A model generated the notes under the pieces. The model was given only the letters and a program-made list of their open reading frames with translations. It made no database searches and was not told the DNA's origin. From Bacteroidales bacterium UBA3808 (GTDB lineage: Bacteria; Bacteroidota; Bacteroidia; Bacteroidales; Paludibacteraceae), in the NCBI GenBank assembly GCA_002369075.1, contig DFEG01000010.1, forward strand, positions 2 through 64,001: a stretch of 64,000 nucleotides of DNA, written 5' to 3'. Every line of letters begins with the position of its first letter. The stretch's first letter is position 1. A program made the position numbers and the translations under genes. Shown here in pieces: positions 3,643 through 62,549 of this stretch.

Positions 3643-3722
3643 AGACCCCACCCAGCCTCCCCTGAAGGGGAGGAGAAAAGCCCCCCTTCTCCCCCTCTGA
3701 GAGGGGGTCGGGGGGGGGCGGC
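3643..3722. repeat. GC-rich palindromic REP/MITE-like element, copy A (inverted relative to B and C)
   Basis: Contains ccttctccccctctgagagggggtcggggggg, the reverse complement of the core in copies B and C, plus the hairpin cctcccctgaaggggagg. Confidence 0.85.
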
Positions 3723-3821
3723 GAAAAGACAAAAGAGAAAAGAACCAAAAGAGAAAACCATGCGGATTGCTTATAATCTCTTAAAAAAAATATTTATTTA
3801 TAAATAAAAAAAAGCACTCTT

Positions 3822-4202
3822 ATGGAATCATTAAACGAAGCGATCGATAAAAAATTCTCCAAATCGCTACTCTGCCTGCTCAAACTGGTGGACCCCGAGC
3901 GCAAACACGGCTTCGAACAACCGCTCATCGAGAAGTGGAACAGGCTGACCCTCGACGAGCAGCGCAAGCTCTACCTCTACCTGCTCTACCGCCGTTGGCG
4001 GGGACTGCCTTTCTTCGGCACGCCTTACGAGATCGTCTGCAACTGCCACCCGCAGCCCTTCAACTGGAACGGGCAGCCCATGATCAACCGACTCATGAAG
4101 GAGACGAAGATGGTACGGGCTTTCTACAACGGCAACTACGGCATCTACACCGCCGACGAAGCCCGTGTGTGGCAGATGACCAATGTGGAACCGCTGAATT
4201 AA
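3822..4202 (+). CDS. Hypothetical protein
   Basis: 126-aa ORF. No recognisable motif. Confidence 0.5.
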   Translation: MESLNEAIDKKFSKSLLCLLKLVDPERKHGFEQPLIEKWNRLTLDEQRKLYLYLLYRRWRGLPFFGTPYEIVCNCHPQPFNWNGQPMINRLMKETKMVRAFYNGNYGIYTADEARVWQMTNVEPLN

Positions 4203-4206
4203 CGAT

Positions 4207-4276
4207 TTGCACTTCTCGCGCATACTTGCGCGAGCCGCCAACATCTTGCACTTCTCGCGCATACTTGCGCGAGCCG
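4207..4276. repeat. Two direct copies (39-bp period) of a 31-bp unit, each containing an 8-bp-stem hairpin
   Basis: ttgcacttctcgcgcatacttgcgcgagccg at 4207-4237 and 4246-4276. The inner inverted repeat is ctcgcgca-tact-tgcgcgag. Confidence 0.9.
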
Positions 4277-4282
4277 ATCACC

Positions 4283-4320
4283 CGACCTTTGTCGGACTAA
4301 AGTCGGACTAAAGTCGGAGG
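4283..4320. repeat. 11-bp tandem repeat GTCGGACTAAA (2 full units plus partial units)
   Basis: Units at 4291-4301 and 4302-4312, with a partial unit at 4313-4320. The same unit recurs at 63109-63178. Confidence 0.9.
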
Positions 4321-4363
4321 CAAGTGCTATACTGACTAACAAATTCTTTACCCATTTCAAGTT

Positions 4364-4600
4364 ATGAACAAATACGCAATTACATTCCCGACCCTCATCG
4401 CCCGGCTGGAGAGGGCTATCCACTACCCCTGCGGGGAGAAAGGTTTTCAGACACTCATGTACGGCTGGATTACCAAGTACGGAAAGGTGTCGCGACAACT
4501 GCTGAACAGCAGAAAAAAAAGCGACGGCGAATACTGGCTCTCATTCGGAGAAGCAACACATTTCTCCAATTATGCGGGCTACAACCTCACGCACGATTAG
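4364..4600 (+). CDS. Hypothetical protein
   Basis: 78-aa ORF followed by a terminator at 4627-4657. Confidence 0.4.
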   Translation: MNKYAITFPTLIARLERAIHYPCGEKGFQTLMYGWITKYGKVSRQLLNSRKKSDGEYWLSFGEATHFSNYAGYNLTHD

Positions 4601-4626
4601 AAAACTATGTGATTTTAAACGAAAAC

Positions 4627-4657
4627 TGGGTGGCACTATTGTCCACCCCGTTTTTTT
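4627..4657 (+). terminator. Intrinsic terminator
   Basis: GGGTGG (4628-4633) pairs with CCACCC (4643-4648), followed by T7 at 4651-4657. Confidence 0.65.
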
Positions 4658-4661
4658 GTAG

Positions 4662-4669
4662 TACCTTTG
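4662..4669 (+). promoter_or_regulatory. -7 promoter element TACCTTTG with no obvious protein gene downstream
   Basis: TAnnTTTG. The downstream 370 nt hold two GC-rich palindromic elements and end at a strong terminator (5011-5042). Confidence 0.45.
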
Positions 4670-4690
4670 CAGTCGAAAATTATAAGTCGA

Positions 4691-4746
4691 AGACCCCGAC
4701 ACCCCCCGACCCCCTCTCAGAGGGGGAGAAGGGGGGGGGAGGAAGG
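4691..4746. repeat. GC-rich palindromic REP/MITE-like element, copy B
   Basis: agaccccgacaccccccgaccccctctcagagggggagaagggggggggg. Confidence 0.85.
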
Positions 4747-4927
4747 CAAAAGGCGAAAGGTTATAGGCGAAAGCAAAAGGGGGGCAATTCAATTGCCCTG
4801 AAACTACCAAGAAAGAGAAGGCCGGATACTATCCGGCAAAATTAACGAAGCAAAAGGGCGGCTCTGGGGAGCCGATGTCGGAATATGATTCCGACGCAAT
4901 GGAAAAAGCAAAAGTCGAAAGTCAAAA

Positions 4928-4996
4928 GGGAGGAGAAAGACCCCCCCCGACCCCCTCTCAGAGGGGGAGAAAGGAGGGGGAGGTTGGGTGGGGTCT
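4928..4996. repeat. GC-rich palindromic REP/MITE-like element, copy C
   Basis: agaccccccccgaccccctctcagagggggagaaaggagggggaggttgggtggggtct. The termini agacccc/ggggtct are inverted. Confidence 0.85.
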
Positions 4997-10111: not shown

Positions 10112-10150
10112 TCAGTCACCAATAACCAGTCACCAATAACCAGTCATAAA
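10095..10150. repeat. 14-bp tandem repeat TAA(T/C)CAGTCACCAA x4 bridging the kdsA stop and the next start codon
   Basis: Units at 10095, 10109, 10123 and 10137. The first unit encodes the last kdsA codons and the last unit ends in the A of the ATG at 10150. Confidence 0.95.
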
Positions 10151-11844
10151 TGGAAGAGACCATCACCATCTATTGCAAGAACACACGCTCGTATCACGAC
10201 GTACCGCGTGGTATTTCGCTGATCCAACTCAAAGATCTGTTGGGCATTGAGCTCAAGTACCCGATCATCGCGGCGCACGTGAACTACAAAGTCGAGAACC
10301 TCGATTTCCTGCTCTACAAACCCAAAGATGTGGAGTTCCTCGATGCGAGTTCTCCGTCCGGCATGAGGGTGTACGTACGTACGTTGGGAATGGTGTTGTC
10401 CTGCGCGGTGAACGAGCTCTTCCCGGAAATGGACCTGCGTGTCGAACATCCCATCAGCAAGGGCTATTACTGCACGCTCCAGTGGCACCGCGACAAGAGA
10501 CAGGACCCCGACGAGGAGCAGGAACCGCCTGTAATGACACGGGAGATGGTGAAAGACATTAAGGAGCGGATGAAACAAATCATCGCCGAGAACCGCCCCA
10601 TCATTGAGGAGGAGAAACAGACCAAAGAGGTGATCCGTATGTTCGCCGAGCGATACAACAACGAGTCTTCCATCTTCGAGACTCTCGGAAACCCCTACTG
10701 CCGTTATTTCCGCATGGGCGGTTTCATTGATTACTATACGAACGTCCTGCTCCCTTCCTCCGGCTATCTCAATGTGTTTGACGTCGTGCCGTTCAAAGAC
10801 GGCTTGCTACTCCGTATTCCGAACCGTACCAACCCAACCGTCCTTGAGGACGAGGTGGCGCAGGACAAGATGTTCTCCATTTTCCAGGAGTACAACCGCT
10901 GGAACAAACTGCTGCGTATCAACAACGTGAGCGATTTCAATATAGCCTGCAAGCAGAACAAGTCTTTCGGACTGATCAAGTTAGCCGAGGCGCTGCATGA
11001 GAAGAAGATAGCCCAGATAGCCGATGCGATCGCGCAGAAACGGCCGAAGATTGTCTTTATCTCCGGTGCGTCCTCCTCCGGCAAGACCACTTTCTCCAAA
11101 CGTCTGCAGATACAACTGCTCGTGGACGGTATTCGTCCGGAGGTGCTCTCCATGGACGATTATTTCGTCAACCGTGTGGACACCCCGAAGGACGAGAACG
11201 GCGAGTACGATTTTGAGACCGTCAATGCCGTGGACCTGCCTTTCTTCCGGCAACAGATGCACGACCTGCTGGACGGCAAAGAGGTCGATCTGCCGACCTA
11301 CGATTTCACCAAGGGAGAACGCGTCTTCCGCGGTAACAAACTGAAACTCAAGAAGGACTCCGTGCTGATCATCGAGGGGCTGCACGCCCTTAACCCATGC
11401 GTCCTGCCGGACGTACCCAAAGAGCTGACCTATAAGATTTATGTCTCGACCCTGACGACGATCAATATTGATAACCACAACTGGATCCCGACGACCGATA
11501 TCCGGCTCCTCCGCCGCGTCGTGCGTGACTACAAGTACCGCGGCTTCTCGGCGCAACAGACGATCGCCCGTTGCCCCTCCGTCGTACGTGGCGAGCAGAA
11601 ATGGGTCTATCCCTTCCAGGAAGAAGCCGACGTCATGTTCAACTCAGCGCTGATCTTCGAGTTTGCGGTGCTCAAACGCCACGCCGAACCGATTTTGCAG
11701 GAGGTACCCAAGTTCTGCGAGGAATACACCGAGGCGCACAGACTCCTCAAGTTCCTGCAATACTTCGTCCCCGTGCCCGAGCGCGAGATACCGCCTACTT
11801 CCTTCCTCCGCGAGTTCGTCGGCGGCTCGTCCTTCCGCTACTAA
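10150..11844 (+). CDS. Uridine/nucleoside kinase (PRK family) protein with an N-terminal TGS-like extension
   Basis: P-loop ISGASSSGKTTFSKRL, and a uridine-kinase-like DDYF...YDFE...P.YDF pattern. Confidence 0.6.
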   Translation: MEETITIYCKNTRSYHDVPRGISLIQLKDLLGIELKYPIIAAHVNYKVENLDFLLYKPKDVEFLDASSPSGMRVYVRTLGMVLSCAVNELFPEMDLRVEHPISKGYYCTLQWHRDKRQDPDEEQEPPVMTREMVKDIKERMKQIIAENRPIIEEEKQTKEVIRMFAERYNNESSIFETLGNPYCRYFRMGGFIDYYTNVLLPSSGYLNVFDVVPFKDGLLLRIPNRTNPTVLEDEVAQDKMFSIFQEYNRWNKLLRINNVSDFNIACKQNKSFGLIKLAEALHEKKIAQIADAIAQKRPKIVFISGASSSGKTTFSKRLQIQLLVDGIRPEVLSMDDYFVNRVDTPKDENGEYDFETVNAVDLPFFRQQMHDLLDGKEVDLPTYDFTKGERVFRGNKLKLKKDSVLIIEGLHALNPCVLPDVPKELTYKIYVSTLTTINIDNHNWIPTTDIRLLRRVVRDYKYRGFSAQQTIARCPSVVRGEQKWVYPFQEEADVMFNSALIFEFAVLKRHAEPILQEVPKFCEEYTEAHRLLKFLQYFVPVPEREIPPTSFLREFVGGSSFRY

Positions 11845-21003: not shown

Positions 21004-21585
21004 TTATTGCCCGGCATCCTCTAAATCTTTCTTGATTTTTGGTTCAAGAATTTTCTTCTGATACTTCTTATGTATCTTGGCGCGTGCCTTTGCCTCACGT
21101 TTCTGCTTCTCGGTAAGGTTGGTATATACTTGCGTTTCCCCTACACTTTGCATATATGGAACTATCAAGTTGAACTCTGGTAGCGGCTCTAACTCACCAA
21201 TAGCCTCCGGATGATTCTGAATATATTTCAACCGGCTCTCCAGTTCTGCCACACGATGCTTTAACTGCTCCAGCATGTACTTGTTGGCGTCATCCAATAA
21301 TTGCGAAGCATTGATGGTGGTCTCTTGATATTGGATTAGCTTCTTCAGATAGCCATTCTCCATATCTGTCTCCGTCGCGTAATCAATCGGTTGACGCGTA
21401 CGCACAAACAGGGAGTCGATAGTTACATTAAAGAAGTCTGCAACCTTCTCTATTGTCGAGGCCGTAGGATTCTTATAAAGGTTATGCAAACTACTGTTGG
21501 GTTTACCGGTCACAGCCATAGATAAGTCTCGCTGTGACTTCTTCTGTTTGGCTAATAAAAGCCTGATTGCATCTCCGTCGTACAT
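21004..21585 (-). CDS. XRE-family HTH regulator (cI-like) with a C-terminal coiled coil
   Basis: KKSQRDLSMAVTGKPNSSLHNLYKNPTASTIEKVADFFNVTIDSLF is an HTH_3 motif. ATG at 21585. Confidence 0.75.
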   Translation of the reverse strand: MYDGDAIRLLLAKQKKSQRDLSMAVTGKPNSSLHNLYKNPTASTIEKVADFFNVTIDSLFVRTRQPIDYATETDMENGYLKKLIQYQETTINASQLLDDANKYMLEQLKHRVAELESRLKYIQNHPEAIGELEPLPEFNLIVPYMQSVGETQVYTNLTEKQKREAKARAKIHKKYQKKILEPKIKKDLEDAGQ

Positions 21586-21603
21586 AGGTTTTTGTTTCAA
21601 AAA

Positions 21604-26247: not shown

Positions 26248-26811
26248 ATGAACTACAGAGAACCATTAACGAAGAACGAAATCCGCGAGCACGCTGCACA
26301 CTATGAGAACAGCAACCCGGCAGTCTATTGTGGCACCTATGCCAAGTACAACAACGGCAGTCTCTACGGCATGTGGATTGATTTGTCCACCTTTGAGAAC
26401 TACCACGATTTTATGGAGTTTTGCAACCGCTTGCACGCCAACGAAGCCGAGCCGGAACTCATGTTCCAAGATTACGAGCACTACCCGGAGCAGTGGTATT
26501 GCGAGGGCTGCATGGGCGAAAGCACGTTTGATAAAATCAAGGCTTATGCCGAGCTGAGCGAGGAAAAGCGTGAAGCATACGAAGCGTATCTTACCTATTG
26601 GGATGAGGGCACGCTCGAAGATTTCGAGGAGCGCTACGAGGGCAAGTACGAGAGCGCAGAAGATTTCGCCGAGTACCTGTGCGAGGAATGCGGCTATTTT
26701 AAGAACTTGCCGCAGTGGCTGCAATGCTGCATTGATTATTCGGCAGTATGGCGCAACCTTGATACCGGTGGCGATTACACGGAGGTCGATGGTCACATCT
26801 TCCGGAATTGA
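26248..26811 (+). CDS. ardA: Antirestriction protein ArdA
   Basis: VYCGTYAKYNNGSLYGMWIDLSTFENYHDFMEFCNRLHANEAEPELMFQDYE is the typical ArdA N-terminus, followed by an acidic C-terminal region. Confidence 0.8.
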   Translation: MNYREPLTKNEIREHAAHYENSNPAVYCGTYAKYNNGSLYGMWIDLSTFENYHDFMEFCNRLHANEAEPELMFQDYEHYPEQWYCEGCMGESTFDKIKAYAELSEEKREAYEAYLTYWDEGTLEDFEERYEGKYESAEDFAEYLCEECGYFKNLPQWLQCCIDYSAVWRNLDTGGDYTEVDGHIFRN

Positions 26812-44871: not shown

Positions 44872-45849
44872 ATGCAAGTTATCAAGAAAACATTTGAGTA
44901 TTTCACGGCAGAAAAGTACTGCGATTTGGAATATGGTACAATCTATTATGTGCCCGGAACATCCTCGCACGAACTCAACGACTATATCTGCGCACGTGCC
45001 GACGAGATAGCCGCTCAGCTCAACAACGATGACCGTAACTGGGTCACATGCCGTATCGTCTACCTCACAAAAGACAATCCTCTCTTTGCTCCGTCCTCAA
45101 AACCTACGCTGCACAGCGCCATGTTACCGACGAGCGATACGCCCGCAAACGCATGCAGTTTCCTAAAGGCATCGCTGGACATCACCGAACCTTCCATTGT
45201 CGAAGACGCTCTCATCGAGTATTTCCGCACCTTGCAGCTGATGTTCGATGATATCTTGGACAAAGGCACGTGTAGCCATTATCTTCTGACTAGTACGATA
45301 CTCTCGCCCGTCGATGATCAGATTCGCTTCTCTGTTTCCCGTCGGGAGATGGATTTCGATGAAAATCGTATTAAAACTTGCGAGTGTCTCGACATGGCGT
45401 ACGAGGAAGAAGATGTTGAGCATTTCGACTATCCGAGTCGCCTCGAAATCACACCTAATACCTTCCAAGTGCTCCTACCGGACTACCATCGGGAAATCAA
45501 GTTCAACGCGCAGATTAAAGCCCTGTACGTACTCTTTCTTAACCACCCGGAAGGCATTCGCATGAAGGAAATCGGCGACTACAAAGAGGAGTATAAGCAA
45601 CTTTATCTATATTTCACTAATCGTGGTAATCTGGAACAGTTACGCCTCGCTGTCGATAAACTCTTCGATGCGTATAACCCCAATACCCTCAATGTCAAAA
45701 AATCCCAATGCAGCGAGCAATTAAGAATTGCTATTCCAGAAGATAACTTGCGACAATACTATGAGATTCAAGTTCATCGCGGCGAACCCCACAAGATCAA
45801 CCTCGACCGCTCCCTTGTCTCTATGCCTGATTTCTTGCACCAACTATAG
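44872..45849 (+). CDS. Hypothetical protein, last gene of the DISARM-like operon
   Basis: 325-aa ORF 19 nt after the helicase stop. No recognisable motif. The C-terminal third (ALYVLFLNHPEGIRMKEIG) could be wHTH-like. Confidence 0.5.
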   Translation: MQVIKKTFEYFTAEKYCDLEYGTIYYVPGTSSHELNDYICARADEIAAQLNNDDRNWVTCRIVYLTKDNPLFAPSSKPTLHSAMLPTSDTPANACSFLKASLDITEPSIVEDALIEYFRTLQLMFDDILDKGTCSHYLLTSTILSPVDDQIRFSVSRREMDFDENRIKTCECLDMAYEEEDVEHFDYPSRLEITPNTFQVLLPDYHREIKFNAQIKALYVLFLNHPEGIRMKEIGDYKEEYKQLYLYFTNRGNLEQLRLAVDKLFDAYNPNTLNVKKSQCSEQLRIAIPEDNLRQYYEIQVHRGEPHKINLDRSLVSMPDFLHQL

Positions 45850-45899
45850 TTTGTAACGTTACAAACATTTGCTTGCCTCGTATAAAAGCAGTACCTTTG
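45848..45899 (+). promoter_or_regulatory. Palindrome-promoter cassette 1 (AGTTTGTAACGTTACAAAC, TTTG, 20 nt, TACCTTTG)
   Basis: Palindrome at 45848-45866 overlapping the TAG stop at 45847-45849. -33 at 45868-45871 and -7 at 45892-45899. Confidence 0.7.
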
Positions 45900-45923: not shown

Positions 45924-46889
45924 ATGACCCAAGAACAAGACATAAGTAAACTGGATTTGCTATTTACGGAAATTGATACGTACCGTAGCAGTAAATTCTT
46001 CAAAAGGTTGATCGAATTCTGCGCCCGCTTTAAGACGCTGGCACCATACAACGCAATGCTTGTGCGCTTCCAAATGCCGGGTGCTCGTTATGTATTGACC
46101 TCTGCCGAATGGAGATCCAGATATCACCGCGGCGTGAAAGCAAAAGCAAGACCGTTAATCATCCTTGTGCCCTTTGGACCGGTGAATTTCGTGTTCGACA
46201 TCAAGGATACGTATCCTCTATCTCCTGATGATCCAAACACCACGGAGCAGATTCTGAAAGCGATGGAAAATCCTTACGCAACGCACGGGGAATTCAACAG
46301 ACAGTATCTTCATTTTCTCGAAAACAACCTGCAATATCATGGTATAGCTTACAATCCTAATTGGGAAACCGGTTCTACGGTGGCTGGAGAGCTCAAGCCA
46401 CTGCCGAATTCTTCAGAATACATGAAAGTTTATATTCCTTTTAGGAAAGGAGAGTTTCCTGTGCAGTCAAAGGCTCATTACGTTTTGAGCACCAGCAGTG
46501 ACGGCCATGATGGACAAACATTGGCCACTATTGCACATGAGTTGGGACATCTATTCTGCAATCATCTGCCCGCGCCCAAAGGTTGGAAGCATGCTTGGGC
46601 AGAAAGAGACATCGAATCCGAAGCCAAAGAATTTGAAGCAGAAGTGGTCTCATGGTTTATATGCGACAGATTGGGAATAAAGACTCCTTCTCACGAATAT
46701 CTCAGTGGCTTTTTGAAAAGCAATGATGAAATCCCCAAAGGAGCAAGCGTAGAAAGAATATTCTATGCCATCACTAAGGTGTGGGAAATGTGTTATAATG
46801 TGAACTTCACGTATAGAAATGGTTTGTTATACAAAAACGACGAGAAGTTTCAGGATGACGTCAAAGCAATAATAGAAAAGAACAAATAA
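45924..46889 (+). CDS. HExxH zinc metallopeptidase (ImmA/IrrE-like; the N-terminal half is possibly ArdC-N-like)
   Basis: ATIAHELGHLFCNH. The N-terminal PYNAMLVRFQMPGARYVLTSAEWRSRYHRGVKAKARPLIIL resembles the ArdC/DUF1738 pattern, judged by eye. Confidence 0.55.
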   Translation: MTQEQDISKLDLLFTEIDTYRSSKFFKRLIEFCARFKTLAPYNAMLVRFQMPGARYVLTSAEWRSRYHRGVKAKARPLIILVPFGPVNFVFDIKDTYPLSPDDPNTTEQILKAMENPYATHGEFNRQYLHFLENNLQYHGIAYNPNWETGSTVAGELKPLPNSSEYMKVYIPFRKGEFPVQSKAHYVLSTSSDGHDGQTLATIAHELGHLFCNHLPAPKGWKHAWAERDIESEAKEFEAEVVSWFICDRLGIKTPSHEYLSGFLKSNDEIPKGASVERIFYAITKVWEMCYNVNFTYRNGLLYKNDEKFQDDVKAIIEKNK

Positions 46890-47341
46890 TGGATACCCCT
46901 AAGAAAATAGTATATGTGGACATGGATAATGTCCTTGTCGATTTCCAGAGCGGGATAGATGCCATGCAAGACGTCATTACGTCAGAGTATGACGGTCGCA
47001 TTGACGAAGTGCCGCATATCTTTGCACACATGGAACCGCTCCCCGGCGCCGTTGAAGCCTACCGCGCCTTGTGCGAAAAATATGATTGTTATATCCTCAG
47101 CACTTCTCCTTGGAGCAACCCTACCGCTGCAAGCGATAAGTTCGATTGGGTTAAGAAATATCTTGGCGATGTTGCCTATAAGCGTCTAATCCTCTCGCAC
47201 CACAAGAACCTCAATCGTGGTGACTATCTGATCGATGATCGCCCTAACAAATGTGGTGCCGACCTCTTTGAAGGCGAAGTAATTCCTTTTGGCAGCGACC
47301 AATTCCCCAACTGGGATGCAGTATTGAAGTATTTATTGTAA
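46889..47341 (+). CDS. 5'(3')-deoxyribonucleotidase (NT5C family, HAD superfamily)
   Basis: HAD motif I (VYVDMDNVLVDF), ILSTSPW, and the C-terminal DYLIDDRP. Confidence 0.7.
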   Translation: MDTPKKIVYVDMDNVLVDFQSGIDAMQDVITSEYDGRIDEVPHIFAHMEPLPGAVEAYRALCEKYDCYILSTSPWSNPTAASDKFDWVKKYLGDVAYKRLILSHHKNLNRGDYLIDDRPNKCGADLFEGEVIPFGSDQFPNWDAVLKYLL

Positions 47342-47363
47342 TGAAATAATTAATAGCTAATTT

Positions 47364-48134
47364 ATGGTACTATATCAAGTTCTCAGATGGTGTTTTATTA
47401 TAGCAGCAATTCTGGCATTCGCTGGATTGTGCATAAACTCCTCAAATGCAGGCGGTGAGTATGTGCAAAACAATTTTTTACGTAGAAACATCGTCTTGTG
47501 TCTATGTGTAATGCTTTGCGCTTATTTATTGGATAATTCTTTTAGGATGTTATCTATCATCTTGCTATTGGGGGTTGTTTTCTTTTTGGTGGTGTTTATA
47601 ATAGAAGCCTTCAAAACAAGGAAAATCAATGATGCAATACGATATGGTATTAAAGGTACCTATTGGACAAAATATTATGATGACGATTACGGTAAGTTCT
47701 ACTTGGTAAGAAGATACACTTATCTTCATAACTTGGGTAAATGTTCAGATTCTGATAATAGAGAGGAGTATTATGGATTATTGGACTTATATGACAATGA
47801 AACGCATAAGTTTGTTCGTACCGTATCTAAAGAATTGCTATGGGAGATGATTAAGAAGCATATCAGTAAAGATAAGGTGCATTCACGTATGAAGACATAC
47901 TGCGACTTTGCAATAATGTATCCTAAATTGCAATATAGTGCATATAGGATAGATGTAAAAAAATTCAAGGACATTGCTGCGCAGTATGGTGCCGAGCATA
48001 ATATTACAATTGAATATGAGTTTGTATCATCTGGGAACGAATTATACCTAATGATATATAATCAAGATATCTCTCAATTGAAAAAAGATTTGCCGGAGTT
48101 AATGAATTTAGCTGACGAATATCGTAGTTTGTAA
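47364..48134 (+). CDS. Membrane-anchored hypothetical protein (3 N-terminal TM helices plus a soluble domain)
   Basis: Hydrophobic segments within residues 1-85. AT-rich codon usage. Confidence 0.5.
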   Translation: MVLYQVLRWCFIIAAILAFAGLCINSSNAGGEYVQNNFLRRNIVLCLCVMLCAYLLDNSFRMLSIILLLGVVFFLVVFIIEAFKTRKINDAIRYGIKGTYWTKYYDDDYGKFYLVRRYTYLHNLGKCSDSDNREEYYGLLDLYDNETHKFVRTVSKELLWEMIKKHISKDKVHSRMKTYCDFAIMYPKLQYSAYRIDVKKFKDIAAQYGAEHNITIEYEFVSSGNELYLMIYNQDISQLKKDLPELMNLADEYRSL

Positions 48135-48177
48135 CGTTACAAACTTTTGGGTGTCTCCCAAAATTGTAGTACTTTTG
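48126..48177 (+). promoter_or_regulatory. Palindrome-promoter cassette 2 (AGTTTGTAACGTTACAAACT, TTTG, 20 nt, TACTTTTG)
   Basis: Perfect 20-bp palindrome at 48126-48145 overlapping the TAA stop at 48132-48134. -33 at 48146-48149 and -7 at 48170-48177. Confidence 0.7.
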
Positions 48178-48212
48178 CAGTGGATTTCAAAATCTGCTGC
48201 AATTTTTGTATT

Positions 48213-61210: not shown

Positions 61211-62449
61211 TTAGAACTCCGGAGCTATCTTATTGATACGTTCAATAAGGCTCTCATCAATGTGATTGGCGTAGCGGAAAGTCATACTAAGGTCGCTGTG
61301 GCCAACTATTTGAACGACGTCCAAATCGGTTGCACCAGCTTTCAATAGGTTGTTAATTCCGCTATCACGGAGAGAGTAGAGTTGATATTCTCTCGGCAAC
61401 TTCAATGCTGCTCTCATTCGATCCCAAATGATAGTGAATGAGTGCGAAGCAGCAGGAGTCTGGCTCGGTTTCCATGTGCCGGCGCCAAAGACGAAATCAT
61501 CCGGTTGGGCTCCACGAATATGGTCACGTAATAAGGCTTCCAATTTATCATCCATACGACAGTTATGGTCTTTGCCGTTTTTCTTCTGCGATCCTTTCAT
61601 TTCGATACAATGTTTCTCGAAGTTCAGTTGTTCAACTTTGACGCGAGTAATCTCTACCGGACGCAGGAAGGATTTATACACCAGTTGCATGACGATGATG
61701 AATGCAGGATTCTTTTCCCTAAAGTATGCAACAATTCTGTCGCGAACTTCCTTGGGGATAATGGTACGATCTTTACCCTGCGCTTTCTTTTGTTTGAGGT
61801 GTTCAAACGGATTGACACGGGCGTAACTCTTTTCCATCGCCCAACTAAACAACGCACGCGCGAGCTTTATATTATTGTTGTACGTACGCGGACTTACGCG
61901 ATCTTCCCTTATTTTCTTGCGGACAGACTTCTTGCCTTTCGAGTTGTTGCCAAGAAGCACGAACTCCATGTACTGGTTCGCCTGCGTCTGCGAGAAAACG
62001 GAAGCGGCAATAGATGGACAGTTATTATGCACCCATTGCTTGAATTGTTTACAGAAGCAACTATAGCTTCGCATAGTCGTTTCTTTCAACTCACCACATC
62101 GATCTTTTTCATACAGGTCAATTACCTGCTCCAACGGAGTGTAAAAGCGAACATTATCACCCGTATAACTCTCCTGCGTACCGATTCCGTAGGCAGGGAT
62201 GTTTTGCTGAAGATTGATAAAACCGGCAGCAAGTTGATTGTTGATTTGAAGAATAATAGCGCTGGTCTGCAATTTGAACTCAGTAAGAGTCTTGCAGCGC
62301 TTACGCTCGCGGTTCATCATCAGACGAACGCGCTCTAAGTCTTGAACGATAGGGTTAAGCTTGTAGTACTCGATGTACCAACCTTTAGAATTGTGTTTGA
62401 GCTCTGCGGGAACAAATTGCCTTAGGGCTCCAAAATTTTGAACCAACAT
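61211..62449 (-). CDS. int: Tyrosine-type site-specific integrase
   Basis: C-terminal catalytic pattern ...LYSLRDSGINNLL...IVGHSDLSMTFRYANH. It lies adjacent to the tRNA 3' end. Start taken at the internal ATG (62449) of ORF 61211-62524. Confidence 0.9.
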   Translation of the reverse strand: MLVQNFGALRQFVPAELKHNSKGWYIEYYKLNPIVQDLERVRLMMNRERKRCKTLTEFKLQTSAIILQINNQLAAGFINLQQNIPAYGIGTQESYTGDNVRFYTPLEQVIDLYEKDRCGELKETTMRSYSCFCKQFKQWVHNNCPSIAASVFSQTQANQYMEFVLLGNNSKGKKSVRKKIREDRVSPRTYNNNIKLARALFSWAMEKSYARVNPFEHLKQKKAQGKDRTIIPKEVRDRIVAYFREKNPAFIIVMQLVYKSFLRPVEITRVKVEQLNFEKHCIEMKGSQKKNGKDHNCRMDDKLEALLRDHIRGAQPDDFVFGAGTWKPSQTPAASHSFTIIWDRMRAALKLPREYQLYSLRDSGINNLLKAGATDLDVVQIVGHSDLSMTFRYANHIDESLIERINKIAPEF

Positions 62450-62549
62450 AGTAATTTTTTTTTCTTCCGCCAACCTTTTCTGATTGGCGGGAGAAAAAAA
62501 GTTAAACAATGTTATTAACGACAAATGACTTCCACATCTGTGAAAGTCA

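Follow-up and report, generated by a model that had tools for sequence, protein, structure and literature searches.

This study concerns three tightly packed genes in a 64,000-nucleotide stretch of DNA from Bacteroidales bacterium UBA3808 (contig DFEG01000010.1), referred to here as the window, and above all the first of them, which encodes a 321-aa peptidase named here PEP. Profile comparisons and a predicted structure indicate that PEP is a divergent branch of the ArdC superfamily and not a canonical ArdC. ArdC has so far been known only as a plasmid anti-restriction factor. What is new is a sizeable, unnamed sister family of about 600 clusters, which appears to stand on the other side of this conflict and has repeatedly been joined to the ends of type I restriction-modification (R-M), BREX and ARMADA operons. 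We tentatively favour, with somewhat less than even confidence, the reading that PEP is a stand-alone, DNA-tethered zinc protease on the defence side of the restriction conflict, and that the two genes behind it, encoding a deoxynucleotidase and a membrane protein, are co-expressed passengers. The genes and control elements in question are the following.

44872..45849, plus strand: c1, 325 aa, recurrent partner of the peptidase, matching no known family
45849..45866, no strand: palindrome 1, GTTTGTAACGTTACAAAC, a probable operator, abutting the c1 stop codon
45868..45899, plus strand: promoter 1 of the Bacteroidetes type, with TTTG at 45868-45871, a 20-nt spacer and TACCTTTG at 45892-45899
45924..46889, plus strand: PEP, 321 aa, putative divergent ArdC-family peptidase, with HELGH at residues 205-209 and EFEAE at residues 236-240
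46889..47341, plus strand: short-cap NT5C-type 5'(3')-deoxyribonucleotidase (PF06941), 150 aa
47364..48134, plus strand: 256-aa protein with three N-terminal transmembrane (TM) helices, from hydropathy
48127..48144, no strand: palindrome 2, identical to palindrome 1, containing the stop codon of the membrane gene and heading the next operon
48146..48177, plus strand: promoter 2 of the Bacteroidetes type, for the AAA-ATPase operon, with TTTG, 20 nt and TACTTTTG

An original prediction for this DNA, made from the letters alone, had described the same three open reading frames (ORFs) at 45924-46889, 46889-47341 and 47364-48134, and its reading of the sequence was accurate: the HELGH motif of the first protein, the TAATG overlap of the first stop codon with the second start codon (46887-46891), the HAD motif DMDNVLVDF in the second protein (which starts MDTPKKIVYVDMDNVLVDF), the three TM helices of the third protein (three hydrophobic segments within residues 1-86) and the palindrome-promoter upstream of the trio were all found again, with two copies of the latter flanking the three genes. 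Under the one promoter, PEP and NT5C overlap by 1 nt and a gap of 22 nt separates NT5C from the membrane gene. In the window, PEP lies one gene behind the helicase of a large DISARM-related operon that we take to be ARMADA; the gene between them is c1, which starts 18 nt past the stop codon of this helicase.

In PEP, a gluzincin protease domain follows a basic N-domain of ArdC-N/BHD-like type (about residues 1-125, pI 9.1), and the AlphaFold2 (AF2) model of the protein is confident (pLDDT 87.5, pTM 0.86). A Foldseek search with this model returned 6sna, the ArdC of R388, as the top and sole high-probability match in the PDB (probability 0.98, 274 aligned columns), the TM-score being low, as expected for two flexibly linked domains. 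Rad4, which according to the ArdC structure paper is the closest relative of ArdC-N (PMC7213743), was among the matches at a low probability of 0.23, and PrpR-type M78 regulators were found at 0.09-0.33. In the profile-profile comparison with hhalign, the PEP family aligned with two ArdC proteins over residues 15-290 (97.7% probability, E 1.5e-12), which together with the Foldseek result shows that the ArdC likeness noted in the original prediction is genuine. The comparison with R388 ArdC alone covered only the C-domain (15% probability, E 0.0018), with the HExxH motif and the glutamate helix aligned. A tblastn search of 72,556 plasmids also led to a conjugative-plasmid “ArdC family protein” of Lacticaseibacillus, which matched PEP residues 30-279 (E 6e-7; 4e-14 in the pairwise comparison) and carries the Pfam ArdcN domain above cut-off (residues 30-123, PF08401); BLAST aligns PEP residues 30-90 to this PF08401-bearing protein.

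About 900 full-length homologues were obtained at 90% clustering, nearly all of them unnamed, and conservation and Pfam counts were taken over 24 diverse members. None of the 24 matched PF08401 (ArdcN) at E<=1, and PF18818 (MPTase-PolyVal) matched 16 of them, all under cut-off. PF06114 (Peptidase_M78) gave 16.6 bits for PEP of the window against a cut-off of 22 and weak matches at E<=1 for 23 of the 24 homologues, the best at 1.4e-6, and a PDB sequence search with the family profile returned nothing meaningful. PEP is filed here as a divergent ArdC-superfamily branch because of the homology found by hhalign and tblastn, the ArdcN-free Pfam result and the basic N-domain. Residues H205, E206, H209, E236 and E238 are invariant in the 24 homologues, and the protease has therefore probably been conserved as an active enzyme. 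Based on homology to ArdC (PMC7213743) and to the BHD domains of XPC/Rad4 (PMC5512222), we infer that the N-domain of PEP binds single-stranded DNA (ssDNA).

PEP appears to share with ArdC (R388, pSa, IncW; 6SNA/6I89; PF08401 and PF18818) the plan of an ArdC-N/BHD-type domain followed by a gluzincin domain with HExxH and a glutamate helix, and both are tied to type I restriction. However, the two are only about 19-24% identical, PF08401 is blind to PEP, and PEP contains an additional beta-rich insert (about residues 140-190) and the residues C212, H214 and C247, which are likewise invariant in the 24 homologues. Leading regions of conjugative plasmids do not carry the PEP family, which is located at the tail of, or inside, restriction, BREX and ARMADA operons and islands. 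The three additional residues adjoin the HExxH helix or lie in the helix that follows, are invariant across phyla, and might act as a cysteine switch or bind a second metal. In one subfamily of the peptidases, the N-terminus is extended by a conserved helical part of about 100 aa with the motif ...F.EFAVA..DYMGEDFIPYC... (L054, L060, L064, L067, L068, L070, L071, L073, L074, L077, L079, L080, and also P0391 and P0374); in a few members its place is taken by a multi-TM anchor or by an N-terminal domain of 350 aa.

The family comprises 604 clusters at 50% identity that reach E<=1e-30. Its search against genomes matched 147 loci, of which 80 were kept. By label, their hosts, which include metagenome-assembled genomes (MAGs) and isolates, are Bacteroidales, Desulfovibrio and other Desulfobacterota, gamma- and betaproteobacteria, Clostridia, Kiritimatiellia, Synergistaceae, Fibrobacter and others. 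Spread over many phyla, the family is rare, patchy and horizontally mobile, with the peptidase present in 3 of 301 genomes of the order to which the window belongs and in none of the other genomes searched of its genus. Among 72,556 plasmid records there were six matches, two of which carry canonical ArdC instead, while one of the other four is embedded in an ARMADA operon; the family is absent from 50,697 phage records.

Restriction-type defence genes recur beside the family. A co-directional gene ends no more than 25 nt upstream of the peptidase in 22 of 78 loci, and such close upstream genes include HsdR, HsdM, type IIG, BrxL, type IV/GmrSD-like, DprA-like PsyrA, CARF-nuclease, UvrD helicase and pAgo-like genes. 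By a conservative seed search, 11 loci contain type I R-M genes, and in 9 of these loci the upstream genes are co-directional with the peptidase; the link to BREX is given by the order pglZ-brxL-PEP in three loci. In a Clostridiaceae MAG (L040) and on a Haematobacter plasmid (L085), the peptidase gene lies between a large methylase and a YprA-like helicase, both homologous to those of the window (28-38% identity), and there occupies the slot that the TIR gene PDC-S35 occupies inside the ARMADA operon of the window. It follows a UvrD gene behind the ARMADA helicase in Flexilinea (L060) and on a Microvirga plasmid (L084). These contexts are scattered over the maximum likelihood tree, on which at least four changes are needed for type I, three for BREX and at least three for ARMADA; the associations with defence operons have therefore arisen repeatedly. 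The family resembles embedded defence genes such as the PDC-S35 TIR gene of the window, as it fills the same methylase-helicase slot in two ARMADA operons and is likewise small, single, swappable and patchily distributed. Unlike PDC-S35, it is not contained in PADLOC-DB 2.0, and its defence role is a putative one. Literature on ArdC-like defence genes yielded nothing relevant, and the ARMADA paper mentions no peptidase.

In one clade, the peptidase gene alone (about 860 bp) shows approximately 90% nucleotide identity, which breaks off sharply at either end of the gene, among MAGs assigned to five distant lineages, labelled Desulfobacteraceae, Synergistaceae, Syntrophaceae, Comamonadaceae and Spartobacteria (L031:362-1490, L033:5992-6852 and 10120-10375, L035, L042). 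Behind the gene lies a non-coding stretch of about 250 bp that is likewise conserved (95% identical), has no match in Rfam and starts with GGCACCTCA, a sequence resembling Tn21-type terminal repeats. In L033 and L034, two extra genes, one of the DUF262 type, are located between the peptidase and this segment. In these five lineages the peptidase gene looks like a discrete, gene-sized mobile cassette.

The original prediction had considered the trio as one functional module, and this did not hold across the 80 loci, in which NT5C is near the peptidase in six and the membrane gene in two. Five close relatives (L001-L004, L007) are the only loci in which NT5C comes immediately after the peptidase; in L036, which is more distant, an NT5C of 51% identity lies upstream of the peptidase, near both the peptidase and c1. 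The membrane gene is found in L002 and L003, in both upstream of the peptidase. The content of the slot between the two promoters was compared among sister elements, with the arrangements of L096, L097/L098 and L100 taken from metagenomic sister contigs.

Window: c1, palindrome, PEP-NT5C-membrane gene, palindrome, AAA-ATPase gene
L097/L098: c1, palindrome, DUF4846-PEP-NT5C-membrane gene, palindrome
L002: c1, palindrome, membrane gene-PEP-NT5C, palindrome, AAA-ATPase gene
L003: c1, half palindrome, membrane gene-PEP-NT5C, then neither palindrome nor AAA-ATPase gene
L096: c1, degenerate palindrome (three mismatches), membrane gene-PEP, palindrome, AAA-ATPase gene, lacking NT5C
L100: c1, palindrome, DUF4846-membrane gene-PEP
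L001: c1, 547-aa gene, PEP-NT5C, palindrome

The order is permuted, L001, L004 and L007 lack the membrane gene, and L096 lacks NT5C. The slot between the promoters is therefore a variable cargo operon with the peptidase as its sole constant, and the gene orders show the trio genes assorting independently within what reads as one promoter-to-next-promoter transcription unit of the cargo region of the island. A known defence system composed of a hydrolase and a three-TM protein was considered and rejected, as neither NT5C nor the membrane protein matches PADLOC and the two do not stay together as a pair. The trio is an assortment of cargo cassettes, for which no three-gene mechanism should be sought.

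The assignment of the second gene to the NT5C deoxynucleotidases, as originally proposed, is supported by PF06941 (63.6 bits against a cut-off of 24.8, 2.8e-17), by the complete set of HAD motifs read from the sequence, DMDNV (I), STSP (II), K (III) and DD (IV), and by PDB matches to human cdN/mdN and a bacterial 5'(3')-deoxyribonucleotidase at about 5e-13. With its PF06941 match and complete HAD motifs, gene 2 comes closest to the cytosolic and mitochondrial enzymes cdN and mdN and to genes of T4-like Vibrio phages (e.g., nt-1) that are named “deoxyribonucleotidase”. In contrast to the 200-aa enzymes cdN/mdN, the protein has 150 aa and is encoded on a defence-rich island; the stretch between its two aligned segments is shorter, which we read as a shorter cap. 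A homologue search returned 5485 sequences, which are about 65% identical across phyla. A chromosomal copy with 64% identity shows conserved synteny, with genes for ribosomal protein S20 and a glycosyltransferase as neighbours; further copies are located on other mobile elements and in 73 phage records, mostly of T4-like Vibrio phages, with about 61% identity. The genome of the window, which is 78% complete, contains a single copy. Between elements whose peptidases, c1 and membrane proteins are about 50% identical, NT5C is 87-93% identical, or about 81% at the nucleotide level, a conservation more in keeping with strong constraint on the enzyme than with co-evolution. Nothing relevant was found in the literature on NT5C in phage defence.

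The third protein combines the three TM helices with a soluble C-domain of about 170 aa and has no match in Pfam, NCBIfam or PADLOC. Its homologues form only 8 clusters among 5.8 billion proteins, all of them in sister elements, and the GC content of the gene is 33.6% as opposed to 43% and 47% for its two neighbours. With its low GC content and its confinement to this lineage, the membrane gene reads as a passenger.

In the favoured reading, PEP would act for defence, either as an autonomous embedded defence gene or as a tuner of the neighbouring restriction machine. The N-domain would tether the protein to ssDNA that becomes exposed when DNA enters the cell, replicates or is damaged. There the protease would cut a DNA-associated protein belonging to the invader or to the restriction machinery nearby, and the cleavage would add a layer to, or tune, restriction-type immunity. 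NT5C and the membrane protein would be optional passengers expressed from the same palindrome-controlled promoter. The family is a candidate tuner of mobile restriction systems or a candidate new single-gene defence, and it offers a tractable handle on the substrates of ArdC-type DNA-tethered proteases.

Several points weigh against this reading. A tail position in defence operons is equally expected of genes hitch-hiking on mobile islands, and the neighbour classification covers part of the 80 loci with crude ORF calls. No model of Pfam, NCBIfam or PADLOC matched PEP above cut-off, PADLOC giving only a weak match to capP, and ssDNA binding by PEP is suggested by homology and the basic pI. ArdA on the same island may leave room for an anti-restriction role, and the anti-restriction activity of ArdC is independent of its protease (PMC7213743).

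A more far-reaching version, which we consider possible and yet rather doubtful, is that the PEP family is the host or island counterpart of plasmid ArdC, that is, an ssDNA-activated zinc protease and dedicated partner of methylation-based restriction systems of the type I R-M, BREX and ARMADA kinds. In a first mode, it would shut off restriction by proteolysis when the DNA of the cell itself comes under threat, as on establishment in a new host or upon DNA damage; in a second mode, it would cut proteins that ride on incoming ssDNA, such as relaxases. If this were true, plasmid ArdC would be a captured version of a defence-control protein.

Another explanation starts from the upstream gene c1, which the original prediction overlooked and which accompanies the peptidase more consistently than NT5C and the membrane gene do. 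The two are linked in Bacteroidales, and c1 neighbours the peptidase in 10 of the 80 loci, where it overlaps from upstream, follows downstream or is convergent. A full-length c1 is also fused to a peptidase in P0311, a 763-aa ORF on one metagenomic contig (L104:1014-3305), in which the profile of c1 aligns with residues 419-762 (hhalign, E 2.6e-48) and the peptidase part includes the N-terminal helical extension. The AF2 model of c1 (pLDDT 70) consists of an acidic N-domain, a disordered linker (residues 141-182) and a helical C-domain. Fold searches gave weak thioredoxin/KaiB-like matches for the N-domain only and no helix-turn-helix (HTH), and c1 has no match in Pfam, NCBIfam, PADLOC or the PDB. 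The charge of the C-domain is near neutral and gives no support to DNA binding. A role of c1 as repressor is put forward only hypothetically, because no HTH was found and the charge of the C-domain is unsupportive.

The 64 kb contain two copies, and no more, of the perfect 18-bp palindrome GTTTGTAACGTTACAAAC, which start at 45849 and 48127; 0 would be expected by chance. Both copies precede the arrangement TTTG, 20 nt, TAnnTTTG (45868-45899 and 48146-48177; read from the sequence), which we take to be the Bacteroidetes/Bacteroides promoter consensus. The palindrome is kept at the same two positions in sister elements, where the layout of promoter 1 recurs, and promoter 2 is conserved in L002, L096, L097 and L101. 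An operator is likelier than a terminator because the RNA hairpins formed by the two copies are weak (z -1.1 and -1.4); a role as intrinsic terminator was rejected on the same grounds, and a simple terminator scan listed neither copy. Directly after the -7 box of promoter 2, in the leader of the AAA-ATPase operon, a 12-pair hairpin with a T-run at 48175-48202 looks like a terminator or attenuator; promoter 1 has no counterpart of it.

A second type of palindrome, TTGCAAGNCTTGCAA, is present in 2-6 copies per locus (one in L043) in most Bacteroidales elements with a divergent c1 subfamily (L020, L024, L025, L026, L027, L036, L043, L071; e.g., L027:6960-6978), often just upstream of operons. The elements with divergent c1 lack GTTTGTAACGTTACAAAC and the window lacks TTGCAAGNCTTGCAA, so that the type of palindrome seems to track the c1 subfamily. 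Such a match fits a relationship between c1 and the operator, and kinship of the elements as wholes may suffice to explain it.

These data would accommodate a switch of the ImmA/ImmR, IrrE/DdrO or CapP/CapH type, in which a repressor, c1 or another, would occupy the palindrome at the -33 element of each promoter and the ssDNA-activated peptidase would cut this repressor in its disordered linker, derepressing its own cargo operon and the AAA-ATPase operon. ImmA, IrrE and CapP proteases respond to DNA damage or ssDNA signals. PEP resembles these M78 proteases in protease fold and motif, with weak matches to PF06114 (23 of 24, best 1.4e-6) and capP, and a promoter palindrome together with the recurrent neighbour c1 suggests a comparable circuit. 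The identical palindrome directly after c1 heads both operons in the window and in sister elements, a different palindrome in 2-6 copies accompanies divergent c1, the fusion joins both proteins, and c1 contains the linker required. However, PEP has no adjacent HTH repressor, unlike the ImmA/IrrE/CapP pairs, and its accessory domain is ArdC-N and not of the IrrE or CapP type; c1, unlike ImmR, DdrO and CapH, has no recognisable DNA-binding features. In addition, 70 of the 80 loci lack c1, no conserved small HTH neighbour was found in the 80 loci, the fusion is known from one contig, and the correspondence of palindrome and c1 subfamily may merely mirror the relatedness of the elements. We regard such a switch as unlikely.

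To the same degree improbable is the first of the two functions offered by the original prediction, a classical ArdC-type anti-restriction or establishment gene that, with ArdA, protects the island DNA on entry into a new host. The two-domain homology to ArdC stands, the ardA gene placed at 26248 is confirmed by PF07275 (1.4e-27), and the island is mobile, as indicated by a primase and an integrase adjoining tRNA-Leu. ArdC counters the type I system HsdRMS (PMC7213743), and type I is the kind of system most often found beside the PEP family. On the other hand, neither a relaxase nor a type IV secretion system was found among the island genes searched, and of the six plasmid matches two carry canonical ArdC and one is embedded in an ARMADA operon. 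Plasmids hold almost no members of the family and phages none, and members typically close host restriction, BREX and ARMADA operons co-directionally, which weakens this explanation; an inhibitor co-operonic with hsdR, brxL or ARMADA genes would be self-defeating, and the blindness of PF08401 to PEP also speaks against it.

The second function offered, a nucleotide-depletion defence in which dNMP hydrolysis is coupled to a membrane effector and gated by the protease, is highly improbable and largely refuted by the comparative data, since the tight packing under one promoter (1-nt overlap, 22-nt gap), the full trio in three arrangement types of sister elements and the second NT5C near the peptidase and c1 in L036 are set against the permuted order and missing genes, an NT5C that is about 90% identical where the peptidase is about 50% and about 64-65% identical to chromosomal copies, the same NT5C in T4-like phages, the foreign GC content of the membrane gene and the missing PADLOC matches for both proteins.

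Chromosomal sequence, with gyrB, Ham1 and a PorZ-like gene, occupies the window up to about 20.6 kb, and the island carrying PEP spans from about 21 kb to 62.6 kb. A tyrosine integrase (61211-62524, minus strand) adjoining tRNA-Leu closes the island, which contains, besides the primase and ArdA, the DISARM-related operon with its DruE/YprA-like helicase matches and embedded TIR gene, an AAA-ATPase/vWA/phosphatase operon, and PARG and NUDIX genes. At the left edge of the island, a 198-aa protein (21004-21600, minus strand) with a weak match to a Cro/C1-type HTH is encoded divergently from the primase gene and may be the island repressor; neither type of palindrome is located near its gene. In the chromosomal part, a cluster of GC-rich perfect palindromes with a REP-like appearance is found at 3650-4970, in an ORF-poor stretch upstream of gyrB, with CCCCCTCTCAGAGGGGG at 4710 and 4951, its one-base variant CCCCCTCTGAGAGGGGG at 3691, and CTCGCGCATACTTGCGCGAG at 4215 and 4254.

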